A stretch of 64,000 bases of DNA. Origin: Anaerolineae bacterium. GTDB lineage: Bacteria; Chloroflexota; Anaerolineae; B4-G1; SLSP01. This document shows, piece by piece, positions 10,887-40,796 of this stretch. The translations under genes and the position numbers were made by a program. A model generated the notes under the pieces. That model was not told the origin of the DNA, did not search any database, and saw nothing but the letters and a program-made list of their open reading frames with translations. Every line of letters begins with the position of its first letter. Position 1 is the stretch's first letter. The DNA is taken from NCBI GenBank assembly GCA_034433375.1, contig DAOUAQ010000116.1, positions 16,442 through 80,441 on the forward strand, written 5' to 3'.

Positions 10887-12243
10887 GATGGATCAGGAAC
10901 AAGCCCGGCGCGTCCAGATGACTCGGGCAGTCATACAAGTTTCGACGGCCGCTGCGGCTGTGATCCTGATCGTTTTTGCGAATTTGTGGATCGCCGGATC
11001 CCAATTTGCGGGTCGGTACGTCGCAGTGGTGGCTCTGGGATTCCTCATGCTCGGTGGTATTAGTTTATGGCTGATTCGCCGCCGCCACTTGAATCCAGCT
11101 ATTACAGTTTACATATTTGCATTGATTGCCGGTCTGACGATGGCTATCTATCTCCTGGGTGGTGTGACCGGACCGGTAACAGTTGGTTTTGTGATGGCGG
11201 CGGTAATTGTTGGATTGATTGGCGGCGCCCGATCGTTGAGTCATGCCGCCATCACCATGGGGGTCATTTATTTGACGATGGCGATTCTGGAGGCTACCCA
11301 CGTGCTGCATCCGCCCCGGATACCCGATACGTCCGTCTGGTTGATCGAGATTGTTTTCTTTTTAGCGATATTTGTGGTGACAGCGTTGGTGGCGAGAACA
11401 TTTGTCAACCAGAGTGGGCGCGCTATGGCTGAGGAGCAGCAGCGCAGCCTTGAACTGGCTCAGGCCAGTCGCCAGGCCGAGGAATTGGCGCTGACCGAGC
11501 GCGAACTGCGTGAACGAGAGGCGCACTCGTCGGCGCACCTCCGCGAGACTGTCGCCGGCTATGCTGACTATCTGTCGCGTGTGGCTGCCGGAGATTTTGC
11601 GGCGCGCGTGGATGTGGGCATGTTGGAAGAGGACGTCGAAGGCGACCGTGAACTGCACGCGCTGGGTGAATATCTTAACTCGACAGTGGATGCGCTGGTT
11701 GCTGCACTGACCCAGGCCCAGGAAGCGCAGCGGCGCTATACAGAACAGGCATGGAAAACTTTCATAGAGTCGGGGCGTGTGCAGCCAGGATTTGCCTACC
11801 GGAAAAATCAAATCACACCGGACGCCGAGTGGCTACCGCAGATGACCCGGGCTGTGGACAGCGGAGCGCCCGTAGTGCAGGATGCGGGTGCGGGCGTGCC
11901 GTTGGTCGTCAACCGGCAGATCGTGGGCGCTATCGGCGGCCAGCACCCCGATGGACGGCCCTGGACCACAGAAGAGTTGGCTTTGATCGAAGATGTGACC
12001 GGGCAGCTCGCGCAGACGATTGAAAGCCTGCGGTTGTTCGACGACGTGCAGCGTCGCGCCGCCCAAGAGCAGGTGATCGGTGACGTGACGGCGCGGATGC
12101 GCGAGTCACTGGATATGGAGACCGTGCTCAGAACCGCGGTGGATGAGATGCGCCAGGCGCTAGGCCTGGAAGGCGTCATCGTGCAACTGGCAAGGCCAGA
12201 AACTGTGCGTGACGAGCTGGACACGCAGCAACCGCCGGTATAG
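10858..12243 (+). CDS. Membrane protein (4-5 TM), HAMP-like/coiled-coil region, short GAF-like domain and the family tail (type B)
   Basis: The ORF runs 10810..12243. The probable start is ATG 10858 ('MMQTQSSPVEM') with 'GAAGGGGGAA' upstream. It overlaps the preceding gene by 29 nt. Internal motif 'LGEYLNSTVDALVAALTQAQEAQRRY' is present. The tail is 'QRRAAQEQVIGDVTARMRESLDMETVLRTAVDEMRQALGLEGVIVQL'. It is paralogous to 31880..33283. Confidence 0.65.
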   Translation: MMQTQSSPVEMDQEQARRVQMTRAVIQVSTAAAAVILIVFANLWIAGSQFAGRYVAVVALGFLMLGGISLWLIRRRHLNPAITVYIFALIAGLTMAIYLLGGVTGPVTVGFVMAAVIVGLIGGARSLSHAAITMGVIYLTMAILEATHVLHPPRIPDTSVWLIEIVFFLAIFVVTALVARTFVNQSGRAMAEEQQRSLELAQASRQAEELALTERELREREAHSSAHLRETVAGYADYLSRVAAGDFAARVDVGMLEEDVEGDRELHALGEYLNSTVDALVAALTQAQEAQRRYTEQAWKTFIESGRVQPGFAYRKNQITPDAEWLPQMTRAVDSGAPVVQDAGAGVPLVVNRQIVGAIGGQHPDGRPWTTEELALIEDVTGQLAQTIESLRLFDDVQRRAAQEQVIGDVTARMRESLDMETVLRTAVDEMRQALGLEGVIVQLARPETVRDELDTQQPPV

Positions 12244-12261
12244 GTGAGGAGGAACGTGAGT

Positions 12262-14025
12262 ATGTGGATGCGCATCAGACAATTCCTTGCGCCGCCGGTG
12301 TTTGAAGGCGATGAGGATAAGACTCAGACTGCTGGCCTCGTCAACACGATCTTGCTGGCCGTCATCGTGTTGATCAGTGTGGCCTCACTCGTCGTTGTGC
12401 TCGTGCTGCGTATTTACGCGCTGATGGGCACACTTTACCTGAGCATGATGCTGCCTATGCTGGTGGCGCTGTGGCTATTGCGGCGCGGTCACGTAAGTGG
12501 CGCTGCTGCCATCATCGTCGGCGCCTTGTGGCTGGTGCTGGTCGTGTCGGGGGCGTTTATTGGTGGGATCATCAACGCCGGTTATACGACGGTTACACTG
12601 GTGATTATCATTGCTGCGTTGCTGCTAGGTGGGCGCGGCGGCATCATTGTCACCGTCGTCAGCATTGTGGCGATCACTATCGTCTACATCACAGAGATGA
12701 CCGGTATCCTGCCTTCTCCGGCGCGTCCAGACGATCCGACGAGTTTCTTCGTCAACCATATCCTTAATTATGGGATGTCCGGGGCCTTGCTGTATCTGGC
12801 GATGCGCAATCTGCGAATGGCGCTTCAGCGCGCCCGACGGCTGGCTGGCGAGTCAGAACTACAACGAGAGCAGTTACAATTGCTGGTGCAACAGCGTACC
12901 CATGACTTTGAGCGTAACGCCAATTACCTGCGGGCAACAACGGCTGTCACGCAAGAGTCCGTGGCGGCCATGGGTGATCCCCAAGAATTATATACTCGTG
13001 TCGTCAACATCATTCAAAATCAATTTGGCTATTACCATGTTGGTCTCTATTTGCTCGACGACAATGCCGAATGGGTTGAATTGCGCGCTGCCTCTGGCAT
13101 CGGTGCGGAACTGGCTACGCAAGGTTTCCGTCTACAGGCTGGTATTGAGGGTATGATTGGCGATGTGGCGCGCCGTGGAACCTACCGTTTAGCCGAAGAC
13201 GTTGGCGAAGATGCGCTGTATCTGTCGCAAGAACTCCTGCGCGACACGCGTTCCGAGTTGGTCCTGCCCTTGCAAACCCGCAATCAAATCATCGGCGTGT
13301 TGGATATACAAAGCGCCGCCGCGCGCGCATTTACTGCGCAGGACGTGCAGACCTTTCAGGCTCTGGCGGATCAAGTGGCGATGGCAATCAGTAACGCACG
13401 TCTGGTGGAACAGGTTCGCCAGGCGGCTGAAGTGGAGCGCCGGATCTATAGCGCGCAAACCGGTGAGGCGTGGCAAAATCTGCTGCGCGCCAGCGAACGA
13501 CTGGGCTTTTACAGCACCGAACAGGCAACCGCCCCAGCCGCCAATCTCTGGCAACCGGAGATGAAGACGGCTTTGCAGACCGGTGGAACGGTGCAGGCTC
13601 CCCAAGATACCCGGCGGTTAGCTGTGCCGGTCAAAGTGCGCGATGAAGTGATCGGGGTCATTGATTTTGCCAAGCCGGATGCCGGCAGCACGTGGACGGC
13701 GGAGGAAATCACCCTGGCGGAATCGCTCACCGAGCAGCTAGGAATAGCCCTGGACAGCGCCCGCTTGTATCAGGACTCGCAACGTCGCGCCACACGTGAG
13801 CGGATGATTGCCTCCGTCGGCGCGCGGGTGCGGGAAACGCTGGAATTGGAGACGATGTTGCAGGTGGCGGTGCAGGAGATTCGTCAGGCGCTGAATCTCG
13901 ACGATATGGTAGTGCGCTTGGCAACACCGGACATGCTGGATGAGCCATCGTCTACCGATAAAGCACCTGACTTCACTGAAAAAACCACCAAGTCGCCAAG
14001 AACGCCAAGGTTTTTTAATGGTTAG
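12262..14025 (+). CDS. Membrane-anchored GAF sensor (type A): N-terminal 'MWxxIRxFLxPPVFEGDED' motif, ~6 TM, two GAF domains and the family tail
   Basis: The ORF runs 12244..14025. The start at ATG 12262 ('MWMRIRQFLAPPVFEGDEDKTQTAGL') is preceded by 'GAGGAGG' at 12246-12252. GAF motifs 'FGYYHVGLYLLDDNAEWVELRAASG' and 'LLRDTRSELVLPLQTRNQIIGVLDIQS' are present. The tail is 'QRRATRERMIASVGARVRETLELETMLQVAVQEIRQALNLDDMVVRL'. Confidence 0.7.
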   Translation: MWMRIRQFLAPPVFEGDEDKTQTAGLVNTILLAVIVLISVASLVVVLVLRIYALMGTLYLSMMLPMLVALWLLRRGHVSGAAAIIVGALWLVLVVSGAFIGGIINAGYTTVTLVIIIAALLLGGRGGIIVTVVSIVAITIVYITEMTGILPSPARPDDPTSFFVNHILNYGMSGALLYLAMRNLRMALQRARRLAGESELQREQLQLLVQQRTHDFERNANYLRATTAVTQESVAAMGDPQELYTRVVNIIQNQFGYYHVGLYLLDDNAEWVELRAASGIGAELATQGFRLQAGIEGMIGDVARRGTYRLAEDVGEDALYLSQELLRDTRSELVLPLQTRNQIIGVLDIQSAAARAFTAQDVQTFQALADQVAMAISNARLVEQVRQAAEVERRIYSAQTGEAWQNLLRASERLGFYSTEQATAPAANLWQPEMKTALQTGGTVQAPQDTRRLAVPVKVRDEVIGVIDFAKPDAGSTWTAEEITLAESLTEQLGIALDSARLYQDSQRRATRERMIASVGARVRETLELETMLQVAVQEIRQALNLDDMVVRLATPDMLDEPSSTDKAPDFTEKTTKSPRTPRFFNG

Positions 14026-14086
14026 ATGAAGATAATTTGTGAAAACGGGTGAATCTCTTGAAATTATTCATCAATTATTCGATTTT

Positions 14087-14110
14087 CTTGGCGAACTTGG
14101 CGTCTTGGCG
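14087..14110. repeat. Three tandem CTTGGCG heptamers (spacings 9 and 8 bp) in the largest intergenic gap of the GAF array
   Basis: CTTGGCG occurs at 14087-14093, 14096-14102 and 14104-14110. A direct repeat 'GAAAGTGAAACGACGCA' / 'GAAGTGAAACGGCGCA' follows at 14146-14178. Together they sit 25-120 nt upstream of ATG 14204. Confidence 0.5.
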
Positions 14111-14203
14111 GTCAAGAAGGACTTTTTGCAGTAGACTCAGCACCTGAAAGTGAAACGACGCAGAAGTGAAACGGCGCATAGCAGGGATCGTGGAGGCTTC
14201 GGA

Positions 14204-16462
14204 ATGAAGAAAACTGGCTTAACGACGCTCGGCGGATTTGTAAGCATCGGTATGTTATTACTAGGGATGCTGACGTCCGCGTGGAAGATGCCGGTGTCTG
14301 CCCAGTCGCCACAGCGGCGAGTTTTGTACATTAACTCCTATCACCGTGGCTACAAATTTTCGGACGACATCACGCGCGGTATCGAAGCGTTGCTCAAAGC
14401 GCCGGGCATGAACGTTGACCTTCAAGTAGAGTATATGGATACCAAACGCATCGCCACCGAGGCATATCTCGAGCAACTCTATCAACTTTACAAGGTCAAG
14501 TTCCATGATAAAAAGTTTGATCTCGTCATCTCATCCGACGACGCCGCATTGAACTTTCTCTTTAAGCATGGCGACGACCTGTTTCCGCACACACCGGTGG
14601 TCTTCTGCGGCGCGAACTTCTTTGATGTGACCCGGCTGGCCGGCCGCGAACTGTACACCGGCGTGAGCGAGTTGGCAGACATCAAAGGGACGTTGGGCCT
14701 GGCGCTCCAACTGCACCCGGCGACACAGCGCATCATCGTCATCAACGATACCTCGGTGACCGGCCAGCGGATCCATGACCGGCTGATGCAGATCATCCCG
14801 GACTATCCCAACGTCGAGTTCACCTTACTTGAAGATGTTTCGATGGCCGAAATACGCGAGAAGGTCAGCACCTTGCCGCCCGATAGTTTAGTCTATTTCA
14901 CCATCTTTTTCACCGATAGTGTTGGCGGATATTATGAGTACGACGTGGGGATGCAGCAAGTGGCCGGCGCCAGCGTCGTGCCGGTTTACGGGACGTGGGA
15001 TTTCAGCCTGGGCTTTGGCATCGTCGGCGGGAAACTCACCAGCGGCTATACCGAGGGCGAACGCGTCGCGCAACTCGCCGTGCGCATCCTCAACGGCGAG
15101 CGCCCCCAAGACATTCCGGTGGTACAAGAAATCGTCAGCCGTTATATGTTTGACTATGAGCAACTGCGGCGTTGGAATATCCCTGAAGCGGCGTTACCCG
15201 AAGATAGCTACATTCTCAACAAACCTTTCTCTTTTTACGAAACCTATCGTGAACTGGTGTGGAGTGTGGGCTTCAGCCTCGTCGTGCTCGGTGTCGCCGT
15301 AGGCATCCTGTCGGTTAGCGTTGTGCGACGGCGGCGAACGGAAACCGTCCTGCGGGACCGCAACCAGGAGCTGCAGGAGATTCGCACCTCACTGGAACAG
15401 CGCGTCGAAGAACGCACGGCAGCCTATGTCCAGCGGGCAACCCTGTTGCAGGCGGCGACGGAAGTATCGCAGACAACCACCGAGATCGCCGAACTCTCCA
15501 TCTTGCTACCGCGTGTGGTGGAACTGGTGCGTGAGCGGTTTAACCTGTATTACGCCGGGCTGTTCCTGGTGGACGAAGAAGGGCGTTGGGCCACATTGCG
15601 CGCCGGCACCGGGGCAGCCGGCCAGCAGATGTTAGCGCAGAACTGGCGTTTGGAAGTGGGCGGGCGCTCCATGATTGGGCGCTGCGTGGCGACGGGACGC
15701 GCCGATATCCAGTTGGATGTGGGTGAAGCGGCGGTGCGTTTTGACAACCCCTTCTTGCCGCAGACGCGCTCCGAGATGGCGCTGCCTTTGCGCGCGCGTG
15801 ACCAGGTCATCGGCGCGATGACCATCCAGAGTGATCGCCCGGCCGCTTTTAGCGATGACGATATCCGCACCATGCAGACTATGGCGGACCAAATTGCCAT
15901 CGCCATCAGCAACGCGCGGCTCTTTGAGCAAGTCCAAGAACGGTTCGCAGCTGAGCGGCGGATGTATGGCGAACGCACCGGCGCGGCGTGGCGCACACTG
16001 GCGCAGACAGAATCCGGTCTGGGATACCTGAGTGATCGCCGCCGGATTGTCCCGGCGGGTGATCTGTGGCGTCCGGAGATGCGCGCGGCTTTACGTTCTG
16101 GACAGATGAGCACTGGCGAGCAGGGCAACACCGTGGCGATGCCGTTGACCGTGCGCGATCAGGTGGTCGGCGTGATTGACGGAACCAAGCCGAATGGCGC
16201 GGTGTGGACCGAGGAAGAAATCAGTTTGTTCACGGCCATGATTGACCAATTGAACGTCGCTCTGGAAGGCGCGCAACTCTACCGCGAATCCCAACGCGCG
16301 GCAGTCCGTGAACAACTATTCAGCCAGGTCAGTGGGCGCATCCGGCAGGAACTTGATCTCGAAGCCGTACTCAAAACCACGGTTGATCAAATCCAAGAAG
16401 TTCTCGGACTTGATCGAGCCACGATTCGCCTGGTGCATGACGTGGATCAAGATAAGGGATAA
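14204..16462 (+). CDS. COG2984/ABC_sub_bind-type periplasmic binding domain, TM, GAF x2 and the family tail
   Basis: The ORF runs 14150..16462. The likely start is ATG 14204 ('MKKTGLTTLGGFVSIGMLLLG', signal-like) with 'GTGGAGG' upstream. Periplasmic domain 'RRVLYINSYHRGYKFSDDITRGIEALL...FDLVISSDDAALNFLFKHGDDLFPHTPVVFCGAN' resembles ABC-transporter substrate-binding-like sensor domains. A TM segment follows ('VWSVGFSLVVLGVAVGILSV'). GAF motifs are 'LVRERFNLYYAGLFLVDEEG' and 'NPFLPQTRSEMALPLRARDQVIGAMTIQS'. Confidence 0.65.
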   Translation: MKKTGLTTLGGFVSIGMLLLGMLTSAWKMPVSAQSPQRRVLYINSYHRGYKFSDDITRGIEALLKAPGMNVDLQVEYMDTKRIATEAYLEQLYQLYKVKFHDKKFDLVISSDDAALNFLFKHGDDLFPHTPVVFCGANFFDVTRLAGRELYTGVSELADIKGTLGLALQLHPATQRIIVINDTSVTGQRIHDRLMQIIPDYPNVEFTLLEDVSMAEIREKVSTLPPDSLVYFTIFFTDSVGGYYEYDVGMQQVAGASVVPVYGTWDFSLGFGIVGGKLTSGYTEGERVAQLAVRILNGERPQDIPVVQEIVSRYMFDYEQLRRWNIPEAALPEDSYILNKPFSFYETYRELVWSVGFSLVVLGVAVGILSVSVVRRRRTETVLRDRNQELQEIRTSLEQRVEERTAAYVQRATLLQAATEVSQTTTEIAELSILLPRVVELVRERFNLYYAGLFLVDEEGRWATLRAGTGAAGQQMLAQNWRLEVGGRSMIGRCVATGRADIQLDVGEAAVRFDNPFLPQTRSEMALPLRARDQVIGAMTIQSDRPAAFSDDDIRTMQTMADQIAIAISNARLFEQVQERFAAERRMYGERTGAAWRTLAQTESGLGYLSDRRRIVPAGDLWRPEMRAALRSGQMSTGEQGNTVAMPLTVRDQVVGVIDGTKPNGAVWTEEEISLFTAMIDQLNVALEGAQLYRESQRAAVREQLFSQVSGRIRQELDLEAVLKTTVDQIQEVLGLDRATIRLVHDVDQDKG

Positions 16463-16478
16463 CAGGTGGGAGAGCGTT

Positions 16479-18218
16479 ATGGCCGAATCAAGTAATAGAG
16501 ACAACACAAACATCGCTGAAAACCAGGACATTCATGCCTGGCAGCAGCAACTCATTCGTGGTGTGTTGCTGGCGCTGGTTATAGCTGGCCCTCTGGCAAT
16601 CTTGGCTGGCTCGTATTATGCGTATGTGACCAATACCCTGTGGTTCATCCCTGGTTATCTGATCGCCTATGGTCTCTTGGTGGCGGCTTCATTCTGGCGG
16701 CGCGGTCCTTACCTGGTGCGGGTCGGTATTTTTCTAACATTCATCTACATCATTGGAGTTCTTGACTTCTTTCAGGATGGACGTGGGGGCAGTGGGCGGA
16801 TTTTCTTGCTAGGTTTGGTCGGCATGGCGAGCTTGTTTCTGAACCGTCGTGGGCGGGTGCTGGTCTCGCTTCTTGTTTTAGCCACTATGATATTATTAAC
16901 GATTGCCTTTTCTTCGGGCTGGGTCAGTATCCTCCCGCAGAACGAGGTGAATTCGACCGATTGGGTTGGGTGGGTGACTAACACCGTGGTTTTGCTGTTG
17001 ATCATGGTTTTGTTACAGGCGGGAAGCGGTTACCTGGTTCCCAACATGATGGCCGCTTTGGAGCAGGGTCGGCGTTTGACGCGCGAGTTGGAGGCGCAGC
17101 GCGCCGCTTTGGAGCGCACGGTCGCCGAGCGGACTGAAGCCCTGACACGGCGCGCGCGTTACCTGGAAGCGACGGCGGATGTGGCGCGCGGTGTCTCGGC
17201 GGTGTTGGAGATTGGCGATTTACTGTCAACGTCAGTGCGTTTGATTAGCGCGCGGATGGGCTTTTATCACACCGGCCTCTTTTTCATTGACCCCGCCGGC
17301 GAGTGGGCGGAACTGCAGGCGGCTTCCAGTGTGGGGGGGCAGCGTATGCTGGCGCGTGGGCATCGTCTGCGCGTTGGCGAGCAAGGCATTGTCGGCGATG
17401 TGGCAGCGCGCGGCAAACCGCGTATTGCCCTCGACGTAGGGCAAGATGCCGTTTTCTTCAACAATCCCGACTTGCCGGAGACGCGCTCCGAGATAGCCCT
17501 GCCGCTTCGCGCGCGCGGACAAGTCTTTGGAGTGTTGGACGTGCAGAGTACGGAACGCGAGGCGTTCACTCAGGAGGATGCCAATGTGCTACAAACCCTG
17601 GCCGACCAGGTGGCGTTGGCGATTAGCAACGCGCGTTTGTTCTACGAAGCGCAAGAAAGCCTGGCAGCTCAACAACGTTTGTATGCTCAGATAAGCGGTG
17701 AGGCCTGGCATACACTGCTGAGCGAACAAGGTGCGTTAGGCTTCGTCAAGCAAAAAGGCGCTCTGCTGCCGGCCGCGGACGCATGGAGTCAAGAGGCTGT
17801 TCAGGCGTTGAAAACTGGGCAGGTAATGCAGGGCGATCGCACCGCGGGGACGCCGACGCCGACGCTGGCCGTACCCATCAAGAGCGGCGACAGGGTGATC
17901 GCGGTGCTTGATGCGCAACTGCCCACCGGGACTACCGCGTGGACACCGGATCAGATTGCGTTGCTGCAATCGTTGTCCGAGCAGGTGGCGCAAGCCATGG
18001 AACGCGCGCGGCTCTACCGGGACACGCAGCGCCGCGCCGCGCGCGAACGTCTGGTCGGCGAAGCAACCGGGCGCATCCGCGAGTCACTTGATATTGAAAC
18101 CGTACTCAAGACGACGGCGAGTGAGATCCGTCAGGCGCTCGATCTGGACACTCTGGTGATCCGCTTGGTAACGCCCGAGACGGACGCCGTCCCCCGGCCT
18201 GGCGCAGAAAGGACATAA
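16479..18218 (+). CDS. Membrane-anchored GAF sensor (type A) with the family tail
   Basis: The ORF runs 16308..18218. The likely start is ATG 16479 ('MAESSNRDNT') with 'GGTGGGAGAG' upstream. ~6 TM segments are present. GAF motif 'FYHTGLFFIDPAGEWAELQAASSVGGQRMLARGHRLRVGEQGIVGDVAARG...NPDLPETRSEIALPLRARGQVFGVLDVQS' is present. The tail is 'QRRAARERLVGEATGRIRESLDIETVLKTTASEIRQALDLDTLVIRL'. Confidence 0.7.
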   Translation: MAESSNRDNTNIAENQDIHAWQQQLIRGVLLALVIAGPLAILAGSYYAYVTNTLWFIPGYLIAYGLLVAASFWRRGPYLVRVGIFLTFIYIIGVLDFFQDGRGGSGRIFLLGLVGMASLFLNRRGRVLVSLLVLATMILLTIAFSSGWVSILPQNEVNSTDWVGWVTNTVVLLLIMVLLQAGSGYLVPNMMAALEQGRRLTRELEAQRAALERTVAERTEALTRRARYLEATADVARGVSAVLEIGDLLSTSVRLISARMGFYHTGLFFIDPAGEWAELQAASSVGGQRMLARGHRLRVGEQGIVGDVAARGKPRIALDVGQDAVFFNNPDLPETRSEIALPLRARGQVFGVLDVQSTEREAFTQEDANVLQTLADQVALAISNARLFYEAQESLAAQQRLYAQISGEAWHTLLSEQGALGFVKQKGALLPAADAWSQEAVQALKTGQVMQGDRTAGTPTPTLAVPIKSGDRVIAVLDAQLPTGTTAWTPDQIALLQSLSEQVAQAMERARLYRDTQRRAARERLVGEATGRIRESLDIETVLKTTASEIRQALDLDTLVIRLVTPETDAVPRPGAERT

Positions 18219-18220
18219 GT

Positions 18221-19939
18221 ATGTGGAATAACATCAAGCGATGGCTGTCCCCACCGGTCTTTGCCGGGGATGAAGAAAAAACGCGCGTAGCGGCTTTGCT
18301 CAATGCCATACTGTGGATTTTCGTTAGCATCTGCGTTGCTGCTGCGCTCTTCTTTCTCTTTCTACCCAATCCGGAACTGTCTTTGTCTCTCGTAGGTGGA
18401 TTCACTCTCGTCAACGCCGGCTTGCTGTGGCTGATGCGTCGAGGGCGCGTGTTTGCCGCCAGTTTGCTGTTTCTGGTCATATTTTGGCTTTTAATGACCA
18501 CCGTATGTCTCTTTTTAGGCGGCACATATTCGGCGACTTACTGGAGTTTCATTGTCATTGTTGTTGTCGCCGGCCAATTGCTGGGTGGACGCGGGGGAAT
18601 CATCTTTGCCGGGCTGAGTGTGCTGGCTACGCTAGGGATTACCCTGGCTCAGACTGCCGGCATATTGCCTGCTACACTCGGCGTCAGATCGCCTATGGAG
18701 CAATGGTGGCCACTGAGCCTGTTTGTGATGGTTACGGCGGGGCTGCTCAACCTGGCATCGCGTAGCTTGAGCGACGCTCTTCAGCGCGCGCGTCGCTACT
18801 CTGCTGAATTGGAGGAACAGCGCGCTGGATTGGAAGTGACTGTGCAAGAGCGCACCTACGATTTGGCGCGCCGCACCCGTTATCTGGAAGTCACGGCTGC
18901 CATCGCGCGTGAGGCCACTTCGGAACTGGAATTGAGTGCACTGATGACCAACGTTGTTAATTCGCTCAGCCAACAATTCGGTTTTTACCACACCGGTTTG
19001 TTCCTGATTGACAGCGCGGGTGAATGGGCCGAACTAAAAGCCGCATCCAGCGAGGGTGGGCAAAGGATGCTGGCGCATGCTCATCGGCTGCGTGTGGGCG
19101 AGCAGGGCATGGTCGGTTACGTGGCCCAACGCGGTGAGTCGCGTATCGCGCTGGACACGGGCAGCGATCGGGTCTTTTTCAATAACCCTGATTTGCCTGA
19201 GACGCGGTCAGAGGCGACGTTGCCATTGCGCGCGCGTGGACAGGTGATCGGTGTGCTGGACGTGCAGAGCACCGAGCCTGAAGCCTTTACACAGGAAGAC
19301 GTCACCGTATTACAGACGTTGGCGGACCAGGTCGCTACCGCCATCAACAACGCGCGCTTGTTCCAGAGGGTTGAGGAAAGCGTCGAGGCCGAACGGCGCG
19401 CTTTTGGTGAGTTGTCGGGACAGGCGTGGTCCACCATGCTCGGTGTACAGACCAATCTCGGTTTTGTAAGTAATCGTCAAACCGTCGCGCCGGTTGGCGG
19501 CACATGGACGCCACAAATGCAGACGGCGTTAGCGAAAGGTCAGGTTGCCGCCGACACCGATAGCGCAGCATTAGCCATTCCGATCAAAGTCCGTGATCGG
19601 GTTATTGGCGTGATTGACGGACACAAGCGAGCTGGCAGTGGCCGGTGGACGCCGGAAGAAGTCACATTGATGCAGACACTTGCCGAGCAGTCAGCGCTGG
19701 CGCTGGAAAGCGCGCGTCTGTACCAGGACACCCAACGCCGTGCGGCGCGTGAGCGCTTAGTGGGTGAAGTGACAGGGCATATTCGTGAGACATTGGACGT
19801 GGAGGCTGTGGTTAAAACGGCCGCCGACGAGATCCGTCGGGCACTGCAACTGGAACGTCTGGTCGTGCGCCTGGGCGCGCCGGATGAGGCTGCCGTTCAG
19901 CGTGGCGGGAAAGGACACAGCGATGTGGAAAAAGATTAA
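18221..19939 (+). CDS. Membrane-anchored GAF sensor (type A) with N-terminal 'MWNNIKRWLSPPVFAGDEEKTRVAALL' motif and the family tail
   Basis: 572 aa. It starts 2 nt after the previous stop. It is a close paralog of 16479..18218 and 19923..21626 ('FYHTGLFLIDSAGEWAELKAASSEGGQRMLAHAHRLRVGEQGMVGYVAQRG...NPDLPETRSEATLPLRARGQVIGVLDVQS'). Confidence 0.7.
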   Translation: MWNNIKRWLSPPVFAGDEEKTRVAALLNAILWIFVSICVAAALFFLFLPNPELSLSLVGGFTLVNAGLLWLMRRGRVFAASLLFLVIFWLLMTTVCLFLGGTYSATYWSFIVIVVVAGQLLGGRGGIIFAGLSVLATLGITLAQTAGILPATLGVRSPMEQWWPLSLFVMVTAGLLNLASRSLSDALQRARRYSAELEEQRAGLEVTVQERTYDLARRTRYLEVTAAIAREATSELELSALMTNVVNSLSQQFGFYHTGLFLIDSAGEWAELKAASSEGGQRMLAHAHRLRVGEQGMVGYVAQRGESRIALDTGSDRVFFNNPDLPETRSEATLPLRARGQVIGVLDVQSTEPEAFTQEDVTVLQTLADQVATAINNARLFQRVEESVEAERRAFGELSGQAWSTMLGVQTNLGFVSNRQTVAPVGGTWTPQMQTALAKGQVAADTDSAALAIPIKVRDRVIGVIDGHKRAGSGRWTPEEVTLMQTLAEQSALALESARLYQDTQRRAARERLVGEVTGHIRETLDVEAVVKTAADEIRRALQLERLVVRLGAPDEAAVQRGGKGHSDVEKD

Positions 19940-21626
19940 GCAGTTTCTCGCGGCGCCCGTCTTTGCCGCTGACGAAGAGAAGACGCGCGTTGCGTCACTG
20001 CTCACCCCCCTGATATGGAGCCTGTTCGTGGCGGATGCGCTTGGCGTGTTGGCGACCATCTTTGTCTTCGCCGAAAAATTAGGCAGTGGCGTTGCTGTCG
20101 CGCTCCTGTTCGTGATTGCGATTGCAGCTAAGCTACTAATGCAGCGTGGGTATGTGCGCGCAGCCGGTTTATTGCTCATTATCGGCACAGGGCTTCCCAT
20201 TATCGCTATCTTTTTACTTTCAGGTCAACGCAGTTTCGCCGGCATGACCTTGTTAAGTATTACCGTAATCGCCGGCCTGGTTTTGGGGCAGCGGGCTGCA
20301 CTCATTGTCGCTGCGCTCAGCAGTTTTGCGTCGTTGGCAGCACTCATCGCGGCCAACCTGGGGTACCCACTGCCGAACATTTTTCCTTCACCCCAGTCGG
20401 CCAACTGGGTCATGTTCACTATCGGTCTGGCGATGGCCGTTGCTCCGCTGAACCTGGCGCTGCGCAGTCTGCGCGATGCACTGGCGCGCGCGCGCGCGTA
20501 TGCGGCTGAGACGGAAGACCAACGCCGCCGGCTAGAGACACTGGCGCGTGAACGTACAACCGAACTGAACCGCCGCGCCGCCTATCTGGGGGCGACGACC
20601 GCTATCGCCAGTGAGTTGTCCTTTGTGCAGCACGACGTACAAGCGCTGTTCTCGCGGGTTGTGAACGTTGTTGCCGAGCAATTCGGTTTTTATCATGCCG
20701 CTCTCTTTTTGTTAGACGAACGTGAGGAATGGGCGGTGTTGCAAGCCGCTTCCAGCGCTGGCGGGCAGCGGATGTTGGAGCGAGGCCATCGCTTGCGGGT
20801 GGGCGCAGAAGGCATTGTGGGCAGCGTCGCGGGGCGGGGACTGTCTCGCGTGGCGCAGGATGTGGGCGCGGATGCGATCTTCTTCGGTAATCCTGACTTG
20901 CCTGAAACGCGCTCGGAAGCAGCGCTGCCCTTGCGCGTGCGTGGTGTGACCTTCGGGGTGCTCGACGTACAAAGCAATGCGGCAGATGCATTTAGCGCGG
21001 AAGATGTGACGGTGCTGCAAGCTCTGGCCGATCAAGTGGCGGTCGCCATTGATAGCGCGCGGCTTTTCCAACACGTGCAGGAACGCCTGACCGCTGAACG
21101 TCGCGCCTTTGGCGAATCAGCTCGCGCAGCGTGGCAGGAGTTGCTGCGTGCGCGCCCTGACCTGTCTTTTGCCAGCGATGCAGAAGGTATCGTCCCGTTT
21201 AAGGCTTGGGAGCCGCAAATGCAAGCCGCAGCGCAAACCGGCCAGGTCGTCGGCGGTACTGACGCGCCTAATGTGCTGGCAATCCCCCTCCGCGTGCGCG
21301 AACAAGTCATTGGCGTGATTGATGGACGCAAACCCGATGGTACAGCGTGGACGCAGGATGAGATTGATCTGTTGCAAACGTTGGCCGGACAATTGAGCGT
21401 GGCTCTGGAAGGCGCGCAACTTTACGCGGACACGCAACGCCGCGCCGCCCGCGAGCAATTGGCGCGCGAGATCACCGACAAGATGCGCGGCACGGTGAGC
21501 TGGGACGAATTGATGCGGACGGCCATCCAACAGATGGCAGACGCCGTGGGGGTCTCGCGTTCCTTCGTGCACTGGCTGCCGCCGGAGGTGCTGAAACCTG
21601 AAGAAGAAGGAGATCACCGTGCGTAA
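19923..21626 (+). CDS. Membrane-anchored GAF sensor (type A) with N-terminal 'MWKKIKQFLAAPVFAADEEKTRVASLL' motif and the family tail
   Basis: The ORF runs 19785..21626. The paralog-consistent start is ATG 19923, which overlaps the upstream stop by 17 nt. GAF motif 'FYHAALFLLDEREEWAVLQAASSAGGQRMLERGHRLRVGAEGIVGSVAGRG...NPDLPETRSEAALPLRVRGVTFGVLDVQS' is present. The tail is 'QRRAAREQLAREITDKMRGTVSWDELMRTAIQQMADAVGVSRSFVHW'. Confidence 0.7.
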   Translation: MWKKIKQFLAAPVFAADEEKTRVASLLTPLIWSLFVADALGVLATIFVFAEKLGSGVAVALLFVIAIAAKLLMQRGYVRAAGLLLIIGTGLPIIAIFLLSGQRSFAGMTLLSITVIAGLVLGQRAALIVAALSSFASLAALIAANLGYPLPNIFPSPQSANWVMFTIGLAMAVAPLNLALRSLRDALARARAYAAETEDQRRRLETLARERTTELNRRAAYLGATTAIASELSFVQHDVQALFSRVVNVVAEQFGFYHAALFLLDEREEWAVLQAASSAGGQRMLERGHRLRVGAEGIVGSVAGRGLSRVAQDVGADAIFFGNPDLPETRSEAALPLRVRGVTFGVLDVQSNAADAFSAEDVTVLQALADQVAVAIDSARLFQHVQERLTAERRAFGESARAAWQELLRARPDLSFASDAEGIVPFKAWEPQMQAAAQTGQVVGGTDAPNVLAIPLRVREQVIGVIDGRKPDGTAWTQDEIDLLQTLAGQLSVALEGAQLYADTQRRAAREQLAREITDKMRGTVSWDELMRTAIQQMADAVGVSRSFVHWLPPEVLKPEEEGDHRA

Positions 21627-21704
21627 CCAATACCACAGGCAGCTTCGCGCCGCATGTGAGCCGTCAGCGGGCGAGGTGGCTGTACTATGTAAGGTGGGGA
21701 AGGA

Positions 21705-24419
21705 ATGGCTGCGATGACGGAAAGCAAGAAAGAAAACTTGGCAATCCAGGGGGCTGGCAATCCTAAGCGCGACACGCGGGTAAAGTTTGAGCGCCGGATG
21801 TTATTGGCAGCTATTACAGCGGCAGTTGTGGGTATTGTCTATCTGGCTATGGCCTGGTACGAACGCAACTGGCAAATTTGGGCCATCACCATCGTGACGT
21901 GGCTCATTGCCGGAGCAAGCGGCGTCGCTTATCTTATCGCCCGGCGCGGCAAGACTGCGCTGGCTGCCAATGTCATGATTGTGGCGCTGATTATCCTGTT
22001 GCCGGCCTATGGTCTGTTTATGGAAGGCGCTTTCTGGCAACTCGCGCTGGCGGTCATCACCTTCCCTCTCTATATCGCCGATCTGCTATGGCCGGCAGTA
22101 TCTCGCGGCAGGATCTGGAGACTGAGCGCATTGGGACTCGCGCTCACACTGATTTTTGAACTGCTCAAACCTTTTCCCCGCTACAGCGAGATCCAGTCGT
22201 GGATCTTGCAGGTACTTTTGTTTGCTATGCTGGCGCTCGGCGTGTTCATGCTGGTTATGGCGCTCGTGCGTGCCTATCGTCGCGTCACCGCCATTCGTAC
22301 CCGCTTGACATTTATGGCCGTGATGATCGTGCTGGTGCTTGCCGGGGCCTTCAGCGTCAGTTCGCTGCTGATGAGCGTCTCGAATGCGCAAAGCCAGGTG
22401 TCCGACCAGTTGCGCTCAGTAGCGGCGTTGAAAAAGACCACTATCAGGATTTGGGTTAACAGTCTGCAATCCAGCCTGGATACGTTGCTTGCTGAAGGAT
22501 ACGAGTTGAATCACGCGCGTGTATTGATGATGCCTATGGCGGGCGAGACGCAGCTCGTCGAAGCGCGCAGTGCGCTGAACGCGCTCTTCCAAACGTTTAT
22601 TGCGGGAACGCCGCAATTTGTCGAGATATTCTTATTGAATCCAGAAGGACGGGTACTGCTTTCTTCGGATACTAACCAGACCGGTAAATGGTATCGAGCA
22701 GCAGATTTTTTGCAGTGTGGAGTGCAAGCGTTTTGCCTGAGCGCTCCGTATGTGTCTAGATTAGGTCACATATCCATTTTTGCCGCGCGTCCGGTGATTG
22801 GTCAATCCGACCAGGTTATCGGCGTGTTGGCAGGTCGCATCAACATAGGACAATTGAGCCTTATTGTATCGGAAACTCCGTTGGATGATACGAGCGAGAC
22901 TTACCTGGTCGCGGCGAACCATGCCACCATCGGCCGGCGGCAATTCAGTGACGGCAATTATGCCTACAGTGAAGGCGTTGACCTCGCTTTGGGCTTACAG
23001 CAAACCAGTCTGCGTACCGGAACATACAAAAACTATAGCGCGACTCCTGTTTTGGGGGTCTACACCTGGGTGCCGGAACTCCAGATGGCCCTGCTATCCG
23101 AGGTGGAACAATCCGAAGTCTTCCGCGGAGCGTGGAATACGGCCCTCATCAACGGTGGCGTTGCGCTTGTCGCGTTGATATTAGCTGCTGTGGTGGCCTA
23201 CTACTTTTCGCGCAATATCTCTGCGGACATCACCGAACTGGCCGATACTGCGACGCGGATTGCGGGCGGTGAGCGTGACCTGGTGGCGCGGGTGGCGCGT
23301 AACGATGAAATCGGCGTGCTGGCGCAAGCCTTCAACAGCATGACCGAGCAACTGCGCGTATTCATCGGCAGCCTGGAACGTCGCGTTGAAGAGCGCACTC
23401 GGGGGTTGGAGGCCGTCGCAGAAGTCTCGCGCGCCACGACCTCGGTGCTTGATCCAGACCGGTTGCTGCCGCGAGTTGTGAATTTGGTCCAGGAGCGCTT
23501 TAGCTTCTACTACGTCGGACTGTTTCTCGTTGATGAGGCGCGCCGCTATGCCGTGCTGCGCGCCGGTACGGGCGAGGCCGGTCGCGCCATGCTCGCGCAG
23601 GGCTGGCAACTGGCTGTGGGGATGGGCTCTATGATCGGTCAGTGTGTCGCCAGCGGCAAGCCCATGATCCGCCAGAGAACCGGCGATACCGTCGCGCGTT
23701 TCGAGAATCCCTTCTTGCCCGATACGCGCTCTGAGATGGCTTTACCTTTACGTTATGGCGGTCGCGTCATTGGCGCGATGACCGTGCAGAGTGTGGAAGA
23801 AGCCGCTTTTGACGAGGCATCCATTGCTATCTTGCAGAACATGGCCGATCAAGTGGCTGTTGCCGTAGAAAACGCCCGGCTCTTCACCGAAACGCACGTG
23901 GCGCTCGAACGCGCCCAAGAAGTGCAGCGCCGTTATCAAGGCCAGGCGTGGCGTGATTATCTGAAGTCTCGCCCGGCGCGTGGTTACGAATGGCGCGGCG
24001 GCGCCCTGCTGACGCTGGGCAACGAACTACCTCCCGGCGCGCAGCAAGTCCTCCAGCAACGCGCGGCAGCGATAGATGAGAAGACACTCCTGCTTCCAAT
24101 TGTCCAGGGTGATCAGGTGATTGGCCTCCTGGGATTTGAGAGTGAAGATGGACGGAAAACGTGGAGCGCCGATGAAGTCGCCTTGATCGAATCGCTCTCT
24201 GAACAACTGATGTTAGCGGCAGAGACCCAACGCCTCCTCGACGAAACGCAACGTCGCGCCGCGCGTGAGCAATTGAGCCGCGAAGTCACGGCAGAAATGC
24301 GCCGTTCGTTGGATGTCACCACCGTATTGCGGACGGCGATTCGCCAACTTCAAGAATCGCTGAATCTTACCGAAGCCGAGGTATGGATCGAGACCGCTAC
24401 CTCCGGCGGTGAAGGGTAG
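21705..24419 (+). CDS. Multi-TM membrane sensor: Cache-like periplasmic domain, HAMP, GAF x2 and the family tail
   Basis: 904 aa. ~6 N-terminal TM segments are present. A Cache-like segment follows ('FLLNPEGRVLLSSDTNQTGKWYRAADF...AARPVIGQSDQVIGVLAGRINIGQLS'). A second TM precedes HAMP ('RNISADITELADTATRIAGGERDLVARVARNDEIGVLAQAFNSMTEQLR'). GAF motif 'FSFYYVGLFLVDEARRYAVLRAGTGEAG...NPFLPDTRSEMALPLRYGGRVIGAMTVQS' is present. The tail is 'QRRAAREQLSREVTAEMRRSLDVTTVLRTAIRQLQESLNLTEAEVWI'. Confidence 0.7.
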   Translation: MAAMTESKKENLAIQGAGNPKRDTRVKFERRMLLAAITAAVVGIVYLAMAWYERNWQIWAITIVTWLIAGASGVAYLIARRGKTALAANVMIVALIILLPAYGLFMEGAFWQLALAVITFPLYIADLLWPAVSRGRIWRLSALGLALTLIFELLKPFPRYSEIQSWILQVLLFAMLALGVFMLVMALVRAYRRVTAIRTRLTFMAVMIVLVLAGAFSVSSLLMSVSNAQSQVSDQLRSVAALKKTTIRIWVNSLQSSLDTLLAEGYELNHARVLMMPMAGETQLVEARSALNALFQTFIAGTPQFVEIFLLNPEGRVLLSSDTNQTGKWYRAADFLQCGVQAFCLSAPYVSRLGHISIFAARPVIGQSDQVIGVLAGRINIGQLSLIVSETPLDDTSETYLVAANHATIGRRQFSDGNYAYSEGVDLALGLQQTSLRTGTYKNYSATPVLGVYTWVPELQMALLSEVEQSEVFRGAWNTALINGGVALVALILAAVVAYYFSRNISADITELADTATRIAGGERDLVARVARNDEIGVLAQAFNSMTEQLRVFIGSLERRVEERTRGLEAVAEVSRATTSVLDPDRLLPRVVNLVQERFSFYYVGLFLVDEARRYAVLRAGTGEAGRAMLAQGWQLAVGMGSMIGQCVASGKPMIRQRTGDTVARFENPFLPDTRSEMALPLRYGGRVIGAMTVQSVEEAAFDEASIAILQNMADQVAVAVENARLFTETHVALERAQEVQRRYQGQAWRDYLKSRPARGYEWRGGALLTLGNELPPGAQQVLQQRAAAIDEKTLLLPIVQGDQVIGLLGFESEDGRKTWSADEVALIESLSEQLMLAAETQRLLDETQRRAAREQLSREVTAEMRRSLDVTTVLRTAIRQLQESLNLTEAEVWIETATSGGEG

Positions 24420-24428
24420 AGGGCCAAT

Positions 24429-26234
24429 ATGTGGACGCGGATTAAACGCTACTTTACATTGCCGGTTTTTGAGGATGAAGAGAAGTCCCGGGTTGCGCGC
24501 CTGCTTATCACGATCCTCATCACGTTATCCATCATAGTCGTGGTCGTGGATGTGCTTATGATCGCGCTTTATGGTCTCCCAAAGCGCTTGGCAGATACCA
24601 GTCCGTTTATCGGTCTTATCGTGATCGTCGGTTCGACGATAGGGGCTTTTGCGCTCATCCGCAGAGGGCGCACCAGCGGATTGGCGATCATGATCGTGTC
24701 GCTCATGTGGTTGCTGATTACTTATTGGATCTGGACTGTGGAGGGCTTAGGCGGCGGACACACCAGTTATGTCTACGCCCTCATTATTGTCCTTGCCGGT
24801 CTGCTGTTAGGCGCGCGCAGCGCCATCGTATTTACCGGCTTGGGGTTTCTGGCGGTGGTTGTCGCGTACTTTATCGAGCACGGAGGAGGGCTTCCAGTAG
24901 GCGTGCCGGTCTCATTTTTGGATTTGATCATCATCCTCGTTGTTTTTGCATTGATCGGCGTCTTCTTAAGATATGCGATAAAAAGTATGCAAGGTGCTAT
25001 TGATCGCGCCCGACATTTTGCCCAGGCGCAGGCTGCGGCGAACCGCGAATTGGATGCGATCCGCGTCTCGTTGGAGCAGCGGGTGGCGGAGCGCACTGAA
25101 GATTTGGAGCGTCGCTCGATCCAACTACAGGCTGCGGCTGAAGTGGGCCGCGCCGCGGCGGCGCTGCGCGACCTCGAGGTGTTGTTGGTCGAGGTTGCCA
25201 AAATGATCGGAGAAAGCCTGAATTTCTATCACGTGGGCATTTTTCTGCTGGAAGAGAATAGCCGCTACGCCGTTTTGCGCGCCGCGAGTAGCCCGGAAGG
25301 GAGGCAAATGCTGGCGCATGGCTATTCTGTGGCCGTTGGGACGCCCGACATCATCGGCGTGGCGACGGCGAATCGTGAACTACGCATCGCTTCAGACACC
25401 GGCGAGAACGCCGTTTCCTTCGCCGGTTCCTTGCTCTCGCGTACACGCGCGGAATTGGCATTGCCGTTGGCTGCTGGCGACCGTTTGATCGGCGTATTGG
25501 ACTTGCACAGCCTGGATCCCGCGGCTTTCACCGAGCAAACCATCTCCGTGATGCAGTTGCTGGCCGATCAAGTTGCCATCGCCATTGAGAACGCGCAGTT
25601 GTTTGCGCAACGTGAAGAATCGCTGGAAGCCGAACGCCGGGCCTATGGTCAGATCAGCCGCGCAGCCTGGCAGCAAATCTCACGTGTGGAAGGCGCGCTG
25701 CGTTTCGTCGTGGATACGCCGGGGTCAGTGCGTCCCGCTGCCGGCGAAACGCCGCCGGCCATGCTCCAGGCGCGACAGACTGGCCAGTTGATCACCGAAG
25801 AAGCGTCCACATTGGCCGTGCCGATTCAACTGCGCGAGGGAGTGAGTATCGGCGCGCTGCGCCTGCGTAAACCGGAGTGGGCGGCAGACGAGGTTACGTT
25901 GGTAGAAACGCTGACCGAACAGCTCGGCGCGGCTCTGGAAAGCGCGCGGCTCTATCAGGAAACCCAACGCCGCGAGGCGCGCGAGCGTATCACCCGTGAG
26001 ATCACCGAAGACATACGCCGTTCCGTGGATATCGAAATGATTCTGCAATCCGCCGTAACCAGCCTGGGGGAAGCCCTGGGTGTGCCGCGCACCTATGTAC
26101 GCTTGATGTTGGAAGAAGCGGATTTACCATCCGCCGAACGCGCCGCCCTGGAATCAACTCCGGCGCTGGATCTCGCCGCGGATGTCAACGGCGCCGCCAG
26201 TGTGGGGCAAGGAGAAGAACACCATGAGTCGTGA
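24429..26234 (+). CDS. Membrane-anchored GAF sensor (type A) with N-terminal 'MWTRIKRYFTLPVFEDEEKSRVARLL' motif and the family tail
   Basis: 601 aa. ~6 TM segments are present. GAF motif 'LNFYHVGIFLLEENSRYAVLRAASSPEGRQMLAHGYSVAVGTPDIIGVATAN...LSRTRAELALPLAAGDRLIGVLDLHS' is present. The tail is 'QRREARERITREITEDIRRSVDIEMILQSAVTSLGEALGVPRTYVRL'. Confidence 0.7.
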   Translation: MWTRIKRYFTLPVFEDEEKSRVARLLITILITLSIIVVVVDVLMIALYGLPKRLADTSPFIGLIVIVGSTIGAFALIRRGRTSGLAIMIVSLMWLLITYWIWTVEGLGGGHTSYVYALIIVLAGLLLGARSAIVFTGLGFLAVVVAYFIEHGGGLPVGVPVSFLDLIIILVVFALIGVFLRYAIKSMQGAIDRARHFAQAQAAANRELDAIRVSLEQRVAERTEDLERRSIQLQAAAEVGRAAAALRDLEVLLVEVAKMIGESLNFYHVGIFLLEENSRYAVLRAASSPEGRQMLAHGYSVAVGTPDIIGVATANRELRIASDTGENAVSFAGSLLSRTRAELALPLAAGDRLIGVLDLHSLDPAAFTEQTISVMQLLADQVAIAIENAQLFAQREESLEAERRAYGQISRAAWQQISRVEGALRFVVDTPGSVRPAAGETPPAMLQARQTGQLITEEASTLAVPIQLREGVSIGALRLRKPEWAADEVTLVETLTEQLGAALESARLYQETQRREARERITREITEDIRRSVDIEMILQSAVTSLGEALGVPRTYVRLMLEEADLPSAERAALESTPALDLAADVNGAASVGQGEEHHES

Positions 26235-28743: not shown

Positions 28744-28779
28744 TGAGAAGTTTGTGGAGATACAGCAAGGAGACCTCCG

Positions 28780-29139
28780 ATGCCCTATCAAATGCAGATG
28801 CGTGAAGACGGTATTTTGCAGATCAGGTTTATTGGTGTGTTGGAAAGCGCCGATTTACCACAATTCATCAGCGAATTCAATCGCTACCTGGAAGCTGCCA
28901 CCCCAGAAAAACCACTGCGTACCTTGTCCAAGGCAGATCAGCCCGGCATGAAGTACTCTCCGGCGGTGCGCAAAGCCTTTGCCGACATGAATTCTGATCC
29001 GCGTTTGGGAAAGTCCGCGACTATTGGCGTGGATCGGTATACGCGCGTGCTGGCAGGATTTGTGTTGAAAGCGACCGGACGCGAAAACATCCGTTTTTTT
29101 GACGCTGAAGAACTGGCGGTGGCTTGGTTGTTATCCTAG
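28780..29139 (+). CDS. Small SpoIIAA-like/STAS-like (DUF3478-type) protein, first of a tandem pair
   Basis: 119 aa. RBS 'AAGGAGA' lies upstream. The sequence is 'GILQIRFIGVLESADLPQFISEF...ATIGVDRYTRVLAGFVLKATGRENIRFFDAEELAVAWL'. The C-terminal '...RFF-aEE-A--WL' ending is typical of SpoIIAA-like family members as I recall them. This is a family-level guess. Confidence 0.5.
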   Translation: MPYQMQMREDGILQIRFIGVLESADLPQFISEFNRYLEAATPEKPLRTLSKADQPGMKYSPAVRKAFADMNSDPRLGKSATIGVDRYTRVLAGFVLKATGRENIRFFDAEELAVAWLLS

Positions 29140-29147
29140 GGGGGACT

Positions 29148-29504
29148 ATGGCGCACCAATTGGGAATGGGTAGTGATGGCATTCTGCGGCTGATGTTCAT
29201 CGGCGATACGGACAAACTGGGCGCTGAAGCCTTGATCGCGGATTTTGGGCCATATCTGGCGCACGCGACGGCGGAGAACCCTCTGTGCATCTTGTGGGAC
29301 GATACCCGTGGCGGCAAAGCCTCTTCAGAAGTGCGTAAATTCTATGCCGACCTCAACCGTGATCCCCGTATAGGAAAAGTCGCCATTTTTGGCGCGAAAA
29401 ACTATGGCCGGGTCTTGGGTGAGTTTATCCTGAAATTCACCGGGCGCGACAATATCCGCTTCTTTAACGCGCAGGAACAGGCGCTTAGTTGGCTAAAAGA
29501 ATGA
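29148..29504 (+). CDS. Small SpoIIAA-like/STAS-like protein, second of the tandem pair (paralog of 28780..29139)
   Basis: The ORF runs 29124..29504. The paralog-consistent start is ATG 29148 ('MAHQLGMGSDGILRLMFIGDTD'). The sequence continues '...VAIFGAKNYGRVLGEFILKFTGRDNIRFFNAQEQALSWL'. It is ~40% identical to the upstream gene. Confidence 0.5.
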   Translation: MAHQLGMGSDGILRLMFIGDTDKLGAEALIADFGPYLAHATAENPLCILWDDTRGGKASSEVRKFYADLNRDPRIGKVAIFGAKNYGRVLGEFILKFTGRDNIRFFNAQEQALSWLKE

Positions 29505-29544
29505 CGGGCGTGCTTTTTGCGGGTGCAGAAAAAAAGGACTCTCT

Positions 29545-33283: not shown

Positions 33284-33338
33284 GCTAAGCGACAATTTCG
33301 ATCTTGGCGCTAATAATGAGTGTGATAAGGATGCAACT

Positions 33339-35123: not shown

Positions 35124-35128
35124 ACGAA

Positions 35129-40698: not shown

Positions 40699-40796
40699 GG
40701 TGGAGGACCGGAAACCGGCTGGACAGCGCGTCGCAGTGGTTCTCTGGCAGGATTTGAGTGTATTCGATCCGCTGGTTATGGGAAAGGTTATGTAAC

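Follow-up and report, generated by a model that had tools for sequence, protein, structure and literature searches.

The 64,000-nucleotide stretch of DNA from an Anaerolineae bacterium analyzed here (contig DAOUAQ010000116.1; hereafter, the window) carries 17 consecutive plus-strand genes for GAF domain proteins, from G01 (1..837, cut at the window edge) to G17 (36217..40698), which span positions 1..40698, and all 17 of these proteins end in the same 49-amino acid (aa) segment. Judging from its sequence relationships, this C-terminal segment, which we call the tail or the stub, is the α1-α2-β1 portion of a GAF subtype that is this clade's own, cut after the first strand. Pfam scans detected no kinase, cyclase, phosphodiesterase or DNA-binding domains in the 17 proteins; the stub is always terminal, in sensors that lack an output domain. 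The explanation that we favor, and to which we would give about an even chance of being correct, is that the tail is a self-packing α-α-β cap that sits at the end of the GAF helix, in the place of the output domain, and provides a surface for dimerization or partner contact.

The stub under study is the C-terminal part of G09 (open reading frame (ORF) 18221..19939, plus strand), a 572-aa protein whose last 79 residues correspond to positions 19700..19939 of the window. This stub (DTQRRAARERLVGEVTGHIRETLDVEAVVKTAADEIRRALQLERLVVRL; 80 bits with the tail hidden Markov model (HMM)) covers aa 503-551 (19727..19873) and comprises a helix α1' (approximately aa 503-525), a second helix α2' (approximately 527-542) and a β1'-like VVRL segment (approximately 544-551). 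The stretch directly before the tail, which we denote the core, is in G09 a compact GAF-like domain (aa 386-502, 19376..19726) with α1, β1-β5 and α5 of its own and without α2. After the stub comes a poorly conserved, low-complexity extension of 21 aa (19874..19936), modeled by AlphaFold2 (AF2) with a predicted local distance difference test score (pLDDT) of 52-62, which contains the likely start codon of G10 (ATG 19923). Module positions are counted from G09 residue 386 as position 1, such that a G09 residue equals the module position plus 385 and the tail occupies module positions 118-166. For the comparison of the tails, long plus-strand ORFs were translated and the last 115 residues of the 17 proteins were aligned with MAFFT. 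The 49-aa segment is present in all 17 and aligns without gaps except for one residue in G04; thus, the original prediction that 17 GAF proteins end in a colinear motif holds, the consensus given for it is correct, and the distance between the tail and the stop codon, 8-42 residues, agrees with the 5-40 that had been claimed. Each of the 17 copies scores 58-82 bits with the tail profile, so that their similarity has to be attributed to paralogy and not to chance. Given that the other tails are 29-71% identical to that of G09, these are diverged paralogues as opposed to homogenized DNA copies, and concerted evolution as the source of the similarity was dropped on the same grounds.

The relationship of the tail to the N-terminus of the GAF domain emerges from several comparisons. 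Tail positions 3-47 align with positions 11-55 of a profile made from the 19 full GAF domains of the window, with the preceding linker helix included (hhalign E-value 3e-4). When the tail profile was compared to all sequences in the PDB, it matched the N-termini of GAF domains of the cyanobacteriochrome/phytochrome class, the first being residues 138-182 of 6OAP (E = 3e-11), followed by 2LB5 (1.5e-8) and then 6OZA, 6BHN and 3OOV. Among 1.84 billion cluster representatives, 10,452 proteins were matched at E ≤ 1e-3. The top matches are giant multi-GAF proteins that contain 5-22 internal tail-like stretches each, with a median spacing of 181 aa, and each of these internal stretches continues into the remainder of a GAF domain; a terminal stub is found in 31 of the 150 best representatives. 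The window itself harbors two internal precedents on the plus strand, namely a core followed by a tail-like α1-α2-β1 segment that runs into a complete GAF in G14 (29968..30498; module HMM positions 2-165 at ORF aa 158-334), and a core with a tail-like segment running into a full GAF in G17 (37501..37977; module HMM positions 2-160 at ORF aa 496-654). The segment in G14 represents the untruncated arrangement. Because the hhalign, PDB and cluster matches all point to GAF N-termini, and because the internal copies in G14 and G17 continue into GAF domains, as do the roughly 180-aa repeats of the multi-GAF relatives, the tail is a truncated GAF N-terminus, much as the original prediction of a half-GAF had it.

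The tail has no dedicated family in Pfam or NCBIfam, as judged from scans of the whole proteins and, in Pfam, also of the tails; of the tails alone, 2 of 17 reach an E-value of 0.012 with Pfam and none reaches the gathering score. Its sequence homology to the GAF family (PF01590, PF13185 and PF13492 of clan CL0161) is clear, and it covers the N-terminal third only. The complete GAF fold, a 5-6-stranded antiparallel sheet with flanking helices of approximately 130-170 aa in total, is absent: there are 49 aa (α1-α2-β1), then a short disordered end, and both AF2 and direct coupling analysis (DCA) indicate that the rest of the domain is missing in cis. Since the homology is present and the complete fold is not, the stub is a fragment of the GAF family rather than a member domain. 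With the α1-α2-β1 region of cyanobacteriochrome/phytochrome-class GAF domains (6OAP 138-182, 2LB5, 6OZA, 6BHN, 3W2Z), the stub shares the colinear pattern RE..l...It..IR.sLdle.iL.ttv.evr..L..drv.vy, E-values of 3e-11 to 3e-7 over 40-47 residues and the same succession of a helix, a capped second helix and a strand. In those proteins, however, these elements make up the first third of an approximately 170-aa domain with the strand central in the sheet, whereas the stub proteins stop 8-42 residues past the strand and have lost the D-R motif in front of it, and one face of their strand is polar. Furthermore, the stub has no bilin-binding region, and the part of the domain that carries the conserved Cys is absent. 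The linker helices of tandem GAF proteins (PDE2A, 1MC0; CyaB2, 1YKD; PDE5, 3MF0) differ in that a whole second GAF follows, in contrast to only its first approximately 45 residues in the stub proteins. Our search of the literature on truncated, partial or split GAF domains, output-less Chloroflexi GAF proteins, MASE11 and cyanobacteriochrome helices yielded nothing relevant, and terminal GAF stubs are not described there.

The distribution of the stub was assessed in 132 related loci of 20 kb each that were obtained by pattern scans, 64 from genomes and 68 from metagenomes; all 64 genome loci belong to metagenome-assembled genomes (MAGs) of Chloroflexota (Anaerolineae, Anaerolineales, Thermoflexales and others). 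Taken together, the window and the 132 loci contain 666 terminal stubs (649 without the 17 of the window) versus 22 internal tail-like stretches, with typically 5-10 stub genes per 20-kb locus and a median of 13 residues after the stub; 89% of the stubs follow a core-type domain and approximately 11% follow another, full GAF. The most conserved columns of the entire module, Q120, R122, A123, E126 and R137, are located in the stub. In 9 of the 16 best cross-genome matches, the identity within the stub is at least as high as in both flanks, and in 12 of these 16 the extension after the stub is the least conserved region. Compared to the internal copies, the stubs have lost the canonical A-D-R before β1 and have gained T-Q-R-R at the start and V-R-L at the end, and the share of hydrophobic residues at strand positions 46 and 48 drops from 82% and 68% to 57% and 9%, respectively, as would be expected if the strand face that used to contact the remainder of the GAF has become solvent-exposed. 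Thus, the stub is under purifying selection of its own, in hundreds of sensors without an output domain. A different pattern is seen in G08, where the best relative (locus L001) shows 76% identity in the 100 aa before the stub and 39% in the stub, and the BLAST alignment ends inside the stub, in contrast to most other cross-genome pairs in which the stub is the best conserved part; possibly, stubs may be exchanged as units.

The core that precedes the stub is a small but complete GAF domain that lacks only α2, and it does not include the stub. Of the Pfam GAF model, the core of most of the 17 proteins matches just the final third (positions 88-133 of 133), the exceptions being G13, which has a full GAF before the tail, and G02 and the terminal core of G14, which match the module profile in part. 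Mean-field DCA (mfDCA) of 600 non-identical core-plus-stub modules (effective number of sequences, Meff, 501; 13,695 pairs) yielded the strongest coupling between positions 32 and 82, accompanied by 34-78 and 32-81, which places the first strand of the core next to its last strand; because of these couplings, we conclude that the core possesses a β1 of its own. Additional plausible contacts within the core are 69-78, 67-79, 48-106, 45-108 and 11-113. Between the tail (126-167) and the core (up to 112), the best pair ranks 169 of 13,695, the pairs do not cluster, and none is replicated in split halves of the alignment, and neither AF2 model brings the tail back to the core. The scenario that, according to the original prediction, would speak against a separate module, namely that the tail does no more than complete the GAF before it in the same protein, was accordingly recovered neither by AF2 nor by coevolution. 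In full GAF domains subjected to the same analysis, α2 and β1 couple mainly to α5, β2 and β5 (40-166, 33-170, 52-72, 52-142); in full tail-type GAFs (274 units, Meff 265, a shallow set that allows a qualitative comparison only), the couplings of this kind are 23-168, 42-143 and 16-162. The core itself, a minimal GAF of approximately 115 aa in which α1 leads straight into β1 (G09 aa 386-502 and the equivalent regions in most of the paralogues), displays the N-terminal signature E-x-RR-A/Y-x-E...W...L...GY/F and seems to constitute a separate, unannotated subtype of GAF.

In contrast to the lack of coupling to the core, the stub is densely coupled internally. As many as 108 of the 170 top couplings fall inside the tail, which holds 8.6% of all pairs. 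The long-range ones among these (137-159, 137-163, 142-166, 129-165, 140-162, 134-160) connect residues that are 16-36 positions apart, which would not be possible in one straight helix; the pairs between α2' and β1' (142-166, 150-162, 153-161, 154-159) are antiparallel and in register. When the alignment was split in halves, 26 of the 100 top pairs were replicated, versus 0.7 expected by chance, including the tail pairs 137-159, 137-163, 141-159 and 149-161; the pairs 142-166 and 129-165 come from the full set. Full tail-type GAFs show an equivalent of the pair 137-159, namely 20-42, and this correspondence suggests that local GAF-like packing has been kept. Column 141, located between L140 and V145, shows the residue spectrum of a helix N-cap (D 446, E 41, N 32, S 30, T 21 and G 14 of 600 sequences), and column 158 that of a C-cap (G/D/N).

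The following scenario appears to be compatible with these findings. The stub is the N-terminal third (linker helix α1', helix α2' and strand β1') of a cyanobacteriochrome-like GAF subtype that this Chloroflexota clade uses in tandem arrays, with the remaining two thirds lost. The last helix of the core, α5, would run straight into α1', after which the chain would turn at the conserved N-cap (L-D), allowing α2' and the short VxVRL segment to pack back onto α1' and form a small self-contained α-α-β unit, with one face of the former central strand now polar. GAF sensors are normally dimers along the α5/α1 helical spine, and for this reason we envisage that two stubs could close the spine of the dimer as a four-helix cap that would resemble the DHp bundle in topology but not in ancestry. 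Such a cap might serve as a dimerization and partner-contact surface at the point where the output domain would be, so that the 17 sensors with their different inputs (Peripla_BP, dCache-HAMP, PAS, ABC_sub_bind, MASE-type) would signal through protein-protein contacts and not through an enzymatic reaction. The likeness to the DHp (HisKA) hairpin is topological: the stub, too, is located at the end of the signaling helix of a sensor, and the proposed helix-turn-helix, then followed by a strand, could close the dimer as a four-helix bundle. However, the stub has no sequence relationship to DHp; Pfam gives no HisKA match to the stub, and there is no conserved His in the tail columns (column 134 is A/G/D/S).

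Several observations weigh against this scenario. Both AF2 monomer models show one continuous α5-α1'-α2' helix, with a pLDDT of 81-96, and the VVRL segment as a coil, and thus would favor a plain helical extension. The mfDCA relies on approximately 500 effective sequences, many of which are paralogues from the same arrays, and subfamily structure of the tails, or shuffling of tails as units, could inflate the couplings within the tail; the two halves employed for the replication are not fully independent either. Finally, some couplings, spaced i+7 to i+9 within α2' (146-154, 144-153, 143-151) or i+5 to i+7 around the strand (161-167, 163-169), are at odds with both a straight helix and a simple hairpin; these may be inter-chain contacts in a homo-oligomer.

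Could the tail, then, be a plain signaling helix that merely extends α5, possibly as a dimeric coiled coil with a disordered end, such that the likeness to GAF is historical and there is no fold of its own? This is what both AF2 monomer models depict. If mapped on the straight helix of these models, however, the couplings, that is, the pairs replicated in split halves along with 142-166 and 129-165, would span 24-54 Å, and neither the conserved N-cap (141) and C-cap (158) spectra nor the strongly conserved alternating V-x-V-R-L pattern would be accounted for. AF2 often renders unpartnered amphipathic segments as confident long helices. We give greater weight to the couplings and the capping signatures than to the straight helix of the models, and hence deem a plain helix unlikely, if still worth serious consideration. 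The suggestion of the original prediction that a shared signaling helix replaces the output domain therefore stands as far as the AF2 monomer models go, and conflicts with the long-range couplings and conserved capping positions in the tail. The same split is apparent with respect to the S-helix (reportedly, the signaling helix of Anantharaman, Balaji and Aravind from 2006). Like the S-helix, the stub is a helical stretch that comes immediately after a sensor domain, and AF2 agrees with an uninterrupted helix; however, S-helices connect two domains, whereas no domain follows the tail, which is terminal, carries capping signatures, has a strand-like end and counts GAF N-termini among its relatives. 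Genuine S-helices of the ERT type are found upstream of the first GAF in these same array proteins.

Another alternative is docking or complementation in trans, whereby the stub would plug into a different protein of the array and wire many sensors to one output. The candidate partners are a GAF of G18, the α2-less core of another paralogue, and two STAS-like proteins. G18 (40758..49454, plus strand), a 2898-aa hybrid histidine kinase with PAS, approximately 8 GAFs, HisKA-HATPase_c and two receiver domains, directly follows G17 and closes the array; it is the only array protein with an enzymatic output and does not have the terminal tail. That none of the 17 proteins contains an output domain while a single hybrid kinase with approximately 8 GAFs ends the array is suggestive of such wiring, as are the same-strand GAF histidine kinases found in 15 of the 132 loci, the conserved SpoIIAA-like gene pair inside the array, the cores without α2, the hydrophobic pattern kept on one face of β1', and the near invariance of TQRRAxRE, as expected of a shared interface. 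On the other hand, no GAF without its own β1 was found, and in the cores the first strand is itself paired with the last. Moreover, approximately 11% of the stubs follow a full GAF, so that there is no fixed one-to-one logic of donors and acceptors, and the variable positions of the stub covary, whereas a common partner would demand that they be fixed. Because a β1 is present in all the cores before the stubs and in the other GAFs as well, strand-swapping into a neighboring GAF, one of the roles originally proposed for the tail, gains no support. Altogether, we regard docking in trans as distinctly unlikely, and the more specific version, in which the stubs are trans-acting plugs of 17 output-less sensors onto a shared partner (a GAF of G18 or the STAS-like pair), as even less probable. 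If that version were true, the 50-kb array would be a many-sensors-to-one-kinase integration machine that operates by fragment-to-domain recognition, a mode of wiring that, to our knowledge, has not been described for bacterial signaling.

Circular permutation or completion in cis, under which the tail would fold back to provide N-terminal elements missing from the core, such that the two form one permuted GAF, is very unlikely. This possibility is brought up by the match of the core to Pfam GAF only near the end of the model (from position 88 or 89 to 133), by the occurrence of 89% of the stubs after such a core and by the result of placing the tail before the core, which in 4 of 4 proteins produces a single full-length GAF match (1-133) with a gain of 4-10 bits. 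When the same tail-first test was performed with the window's own full-GAF profile, however, there was no gain over shuffled or reversed tails; the effect in Pfam shows only the likeness of the tail to GAF positions 1-30. In addition, there is no fold-back of the tail in AF2, core strand 30-34 pairs with the last strand of the core, and no tail-core coupling appears among the top 168 pairs, although the α2-α5 and β1-β5 couplings are prominent in full GAFs analyzed alike. The same core is also found before a complete GAF (G14, G17), and stubs are also found after complete GAFs (G13). With neither AF2 nor DCA bringing the strand or helix of the tail into contact with the sheet and α5 of the core, a circularly permuted GAF is largely refuted.

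The most improbable alternative, that the tail is a non-functional, decaying leftover of a lost GAF carried along by duplication of the array, is compatible with the origin of the tail by truncation and with the decay of the canonical ADR motif, but hardly with 666 copies conserved in many MAGs with always the same end point, with the fact that no columns of the module are more conserved than those in the stub, which has also acquired constraints for itself, or with the fact that the residues just after it do decay.

Domain databases label the array proteins as 'GAF domain-containing protein' and assign no output to them. In this situation, the stub offers an unannotated, sharply bounded and strongly conserved marker by which a large family of Anaerolineae and Thermoflexales sensors without an output can be recognized; each locus has 5-17 copies. 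A profile built for the stub would tell terminal copies apart from genuine GAF starts, and Chloroflexota signaling proteins could be annotated better with it. If the stub indeed is a surface for dimerization or for handing on a signal, this would explain how arrays with diverse inputs act without kinase, cyclase or DNA-binding parts, and would provide an example of a domain fragment that has become a module of its own.

The input modules of the 17 proteins, as identified with Pfam, differ widely: LacI-type periplasmic-binding domains (Peripla_BP) in G02 and G04, dCache_1-HAMP in G03 and G11, PAS in G04 and G13, ABC_sub_bind in G07, and MASE11-like or other membrane domains in G05, G06, G08-G10, G12, G15 and G16. 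In most of the proteins, one or more GAF domains come after the input module. All the stubs are encoded on the plus strand. In the first part of the array, the stub lies at 631..777 in G01, the ORF of which is cut at the window start; at 3510..3656 in the Peripla_BP-GAF protein G02 (gene 828..3704); at 6431..6577 in G03 (3701..6655; dCache-HAMP-GAF); at 10668..10811, with 48 aa, in G04 (6567..10886; Peripla_BP-GAF-PAS-PAS-GAF); at 12043..12189 in G05 (10810..12243), a membrane protein that consists of core plus stub only; at 13774..13920 in G06 (12244..14025); at 16286..16432 in G07 (14150..16462; ABC_sub_bind-GAF); and at 18021..18167 in G08 (16308..18218; MASE11-GAF). Downstream of G09, it is found at 21429..21575 in G10 (probable start 19923, end 21626); at 24243..24389 in G11 (21705..24419; dCache-HAMP-GAF); at 25959..26105 in G12 (24429..26234); at 28501..28647 in G13 (26182..28743; PAS-GAF-PAS-PAS-GAF), after a full GAF and not a core; at 31690..31836 in G14 (29545..31890); at 33110..33256 in G15 (31862..33283), another membrane protein with core plus stub only; at 34914..35060 in G16 (33339..35123); and at 40498..40644 in G17 (36217..40698), which contains HAMP plus five GAFs.

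The STAS-like pair consists of tandem paralogous plus-strand ORFs, 28780..29139 (119 aa) and 29124..29504 (126 aa), that occupy the only large gap in the array. Their scores with the Pfam SpoIIAA-like family (STAS fold, PF11964), 23.2 and 26.8 bits, are near the cut-off of 25. Homologues on the same strand are present in 11 of the 132 related loci, in 8 of these 11 as a tandem pair, and mostly about 7 kb downstream of a G09-like gene; it is possible that the pair is a partner-switching component of the array. The array is also interrupted by a 362-aa lipoprotein-like ORF (35129..36217, plus strand) with a weak ABC_sub_bind match (23.8 bits), which is related to the N-terminal half of G07 and contains neither a GAF nor a stub. 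A scan of the window with Rfam revealed no RNA family, and a look-up of public assemblies returned no record of the exact G09 sequence. A conserved N-terminal motif, MWxxIKxFLxxPVFxxDE(E/D)K(T/S)RxAxLL, precedes the first transmembrane helix in the membrane-domain proteins G06 (at about 12262), G09 (18221), G10 (19923) and G12 (24429); the MASE11 match is in G08. With regard to G10, the ORF listing gives a GTG start at 19785, whereas the homologous N-terminus MWKKIKQFLAAPVFAADEEKTRV begins at ATG 19923. This ATG overlaps the final 17 nucleotides of G09, an arrangement that suggests translational coupling of the two genes, and several other gene pairs in the array overlap or abut as well.

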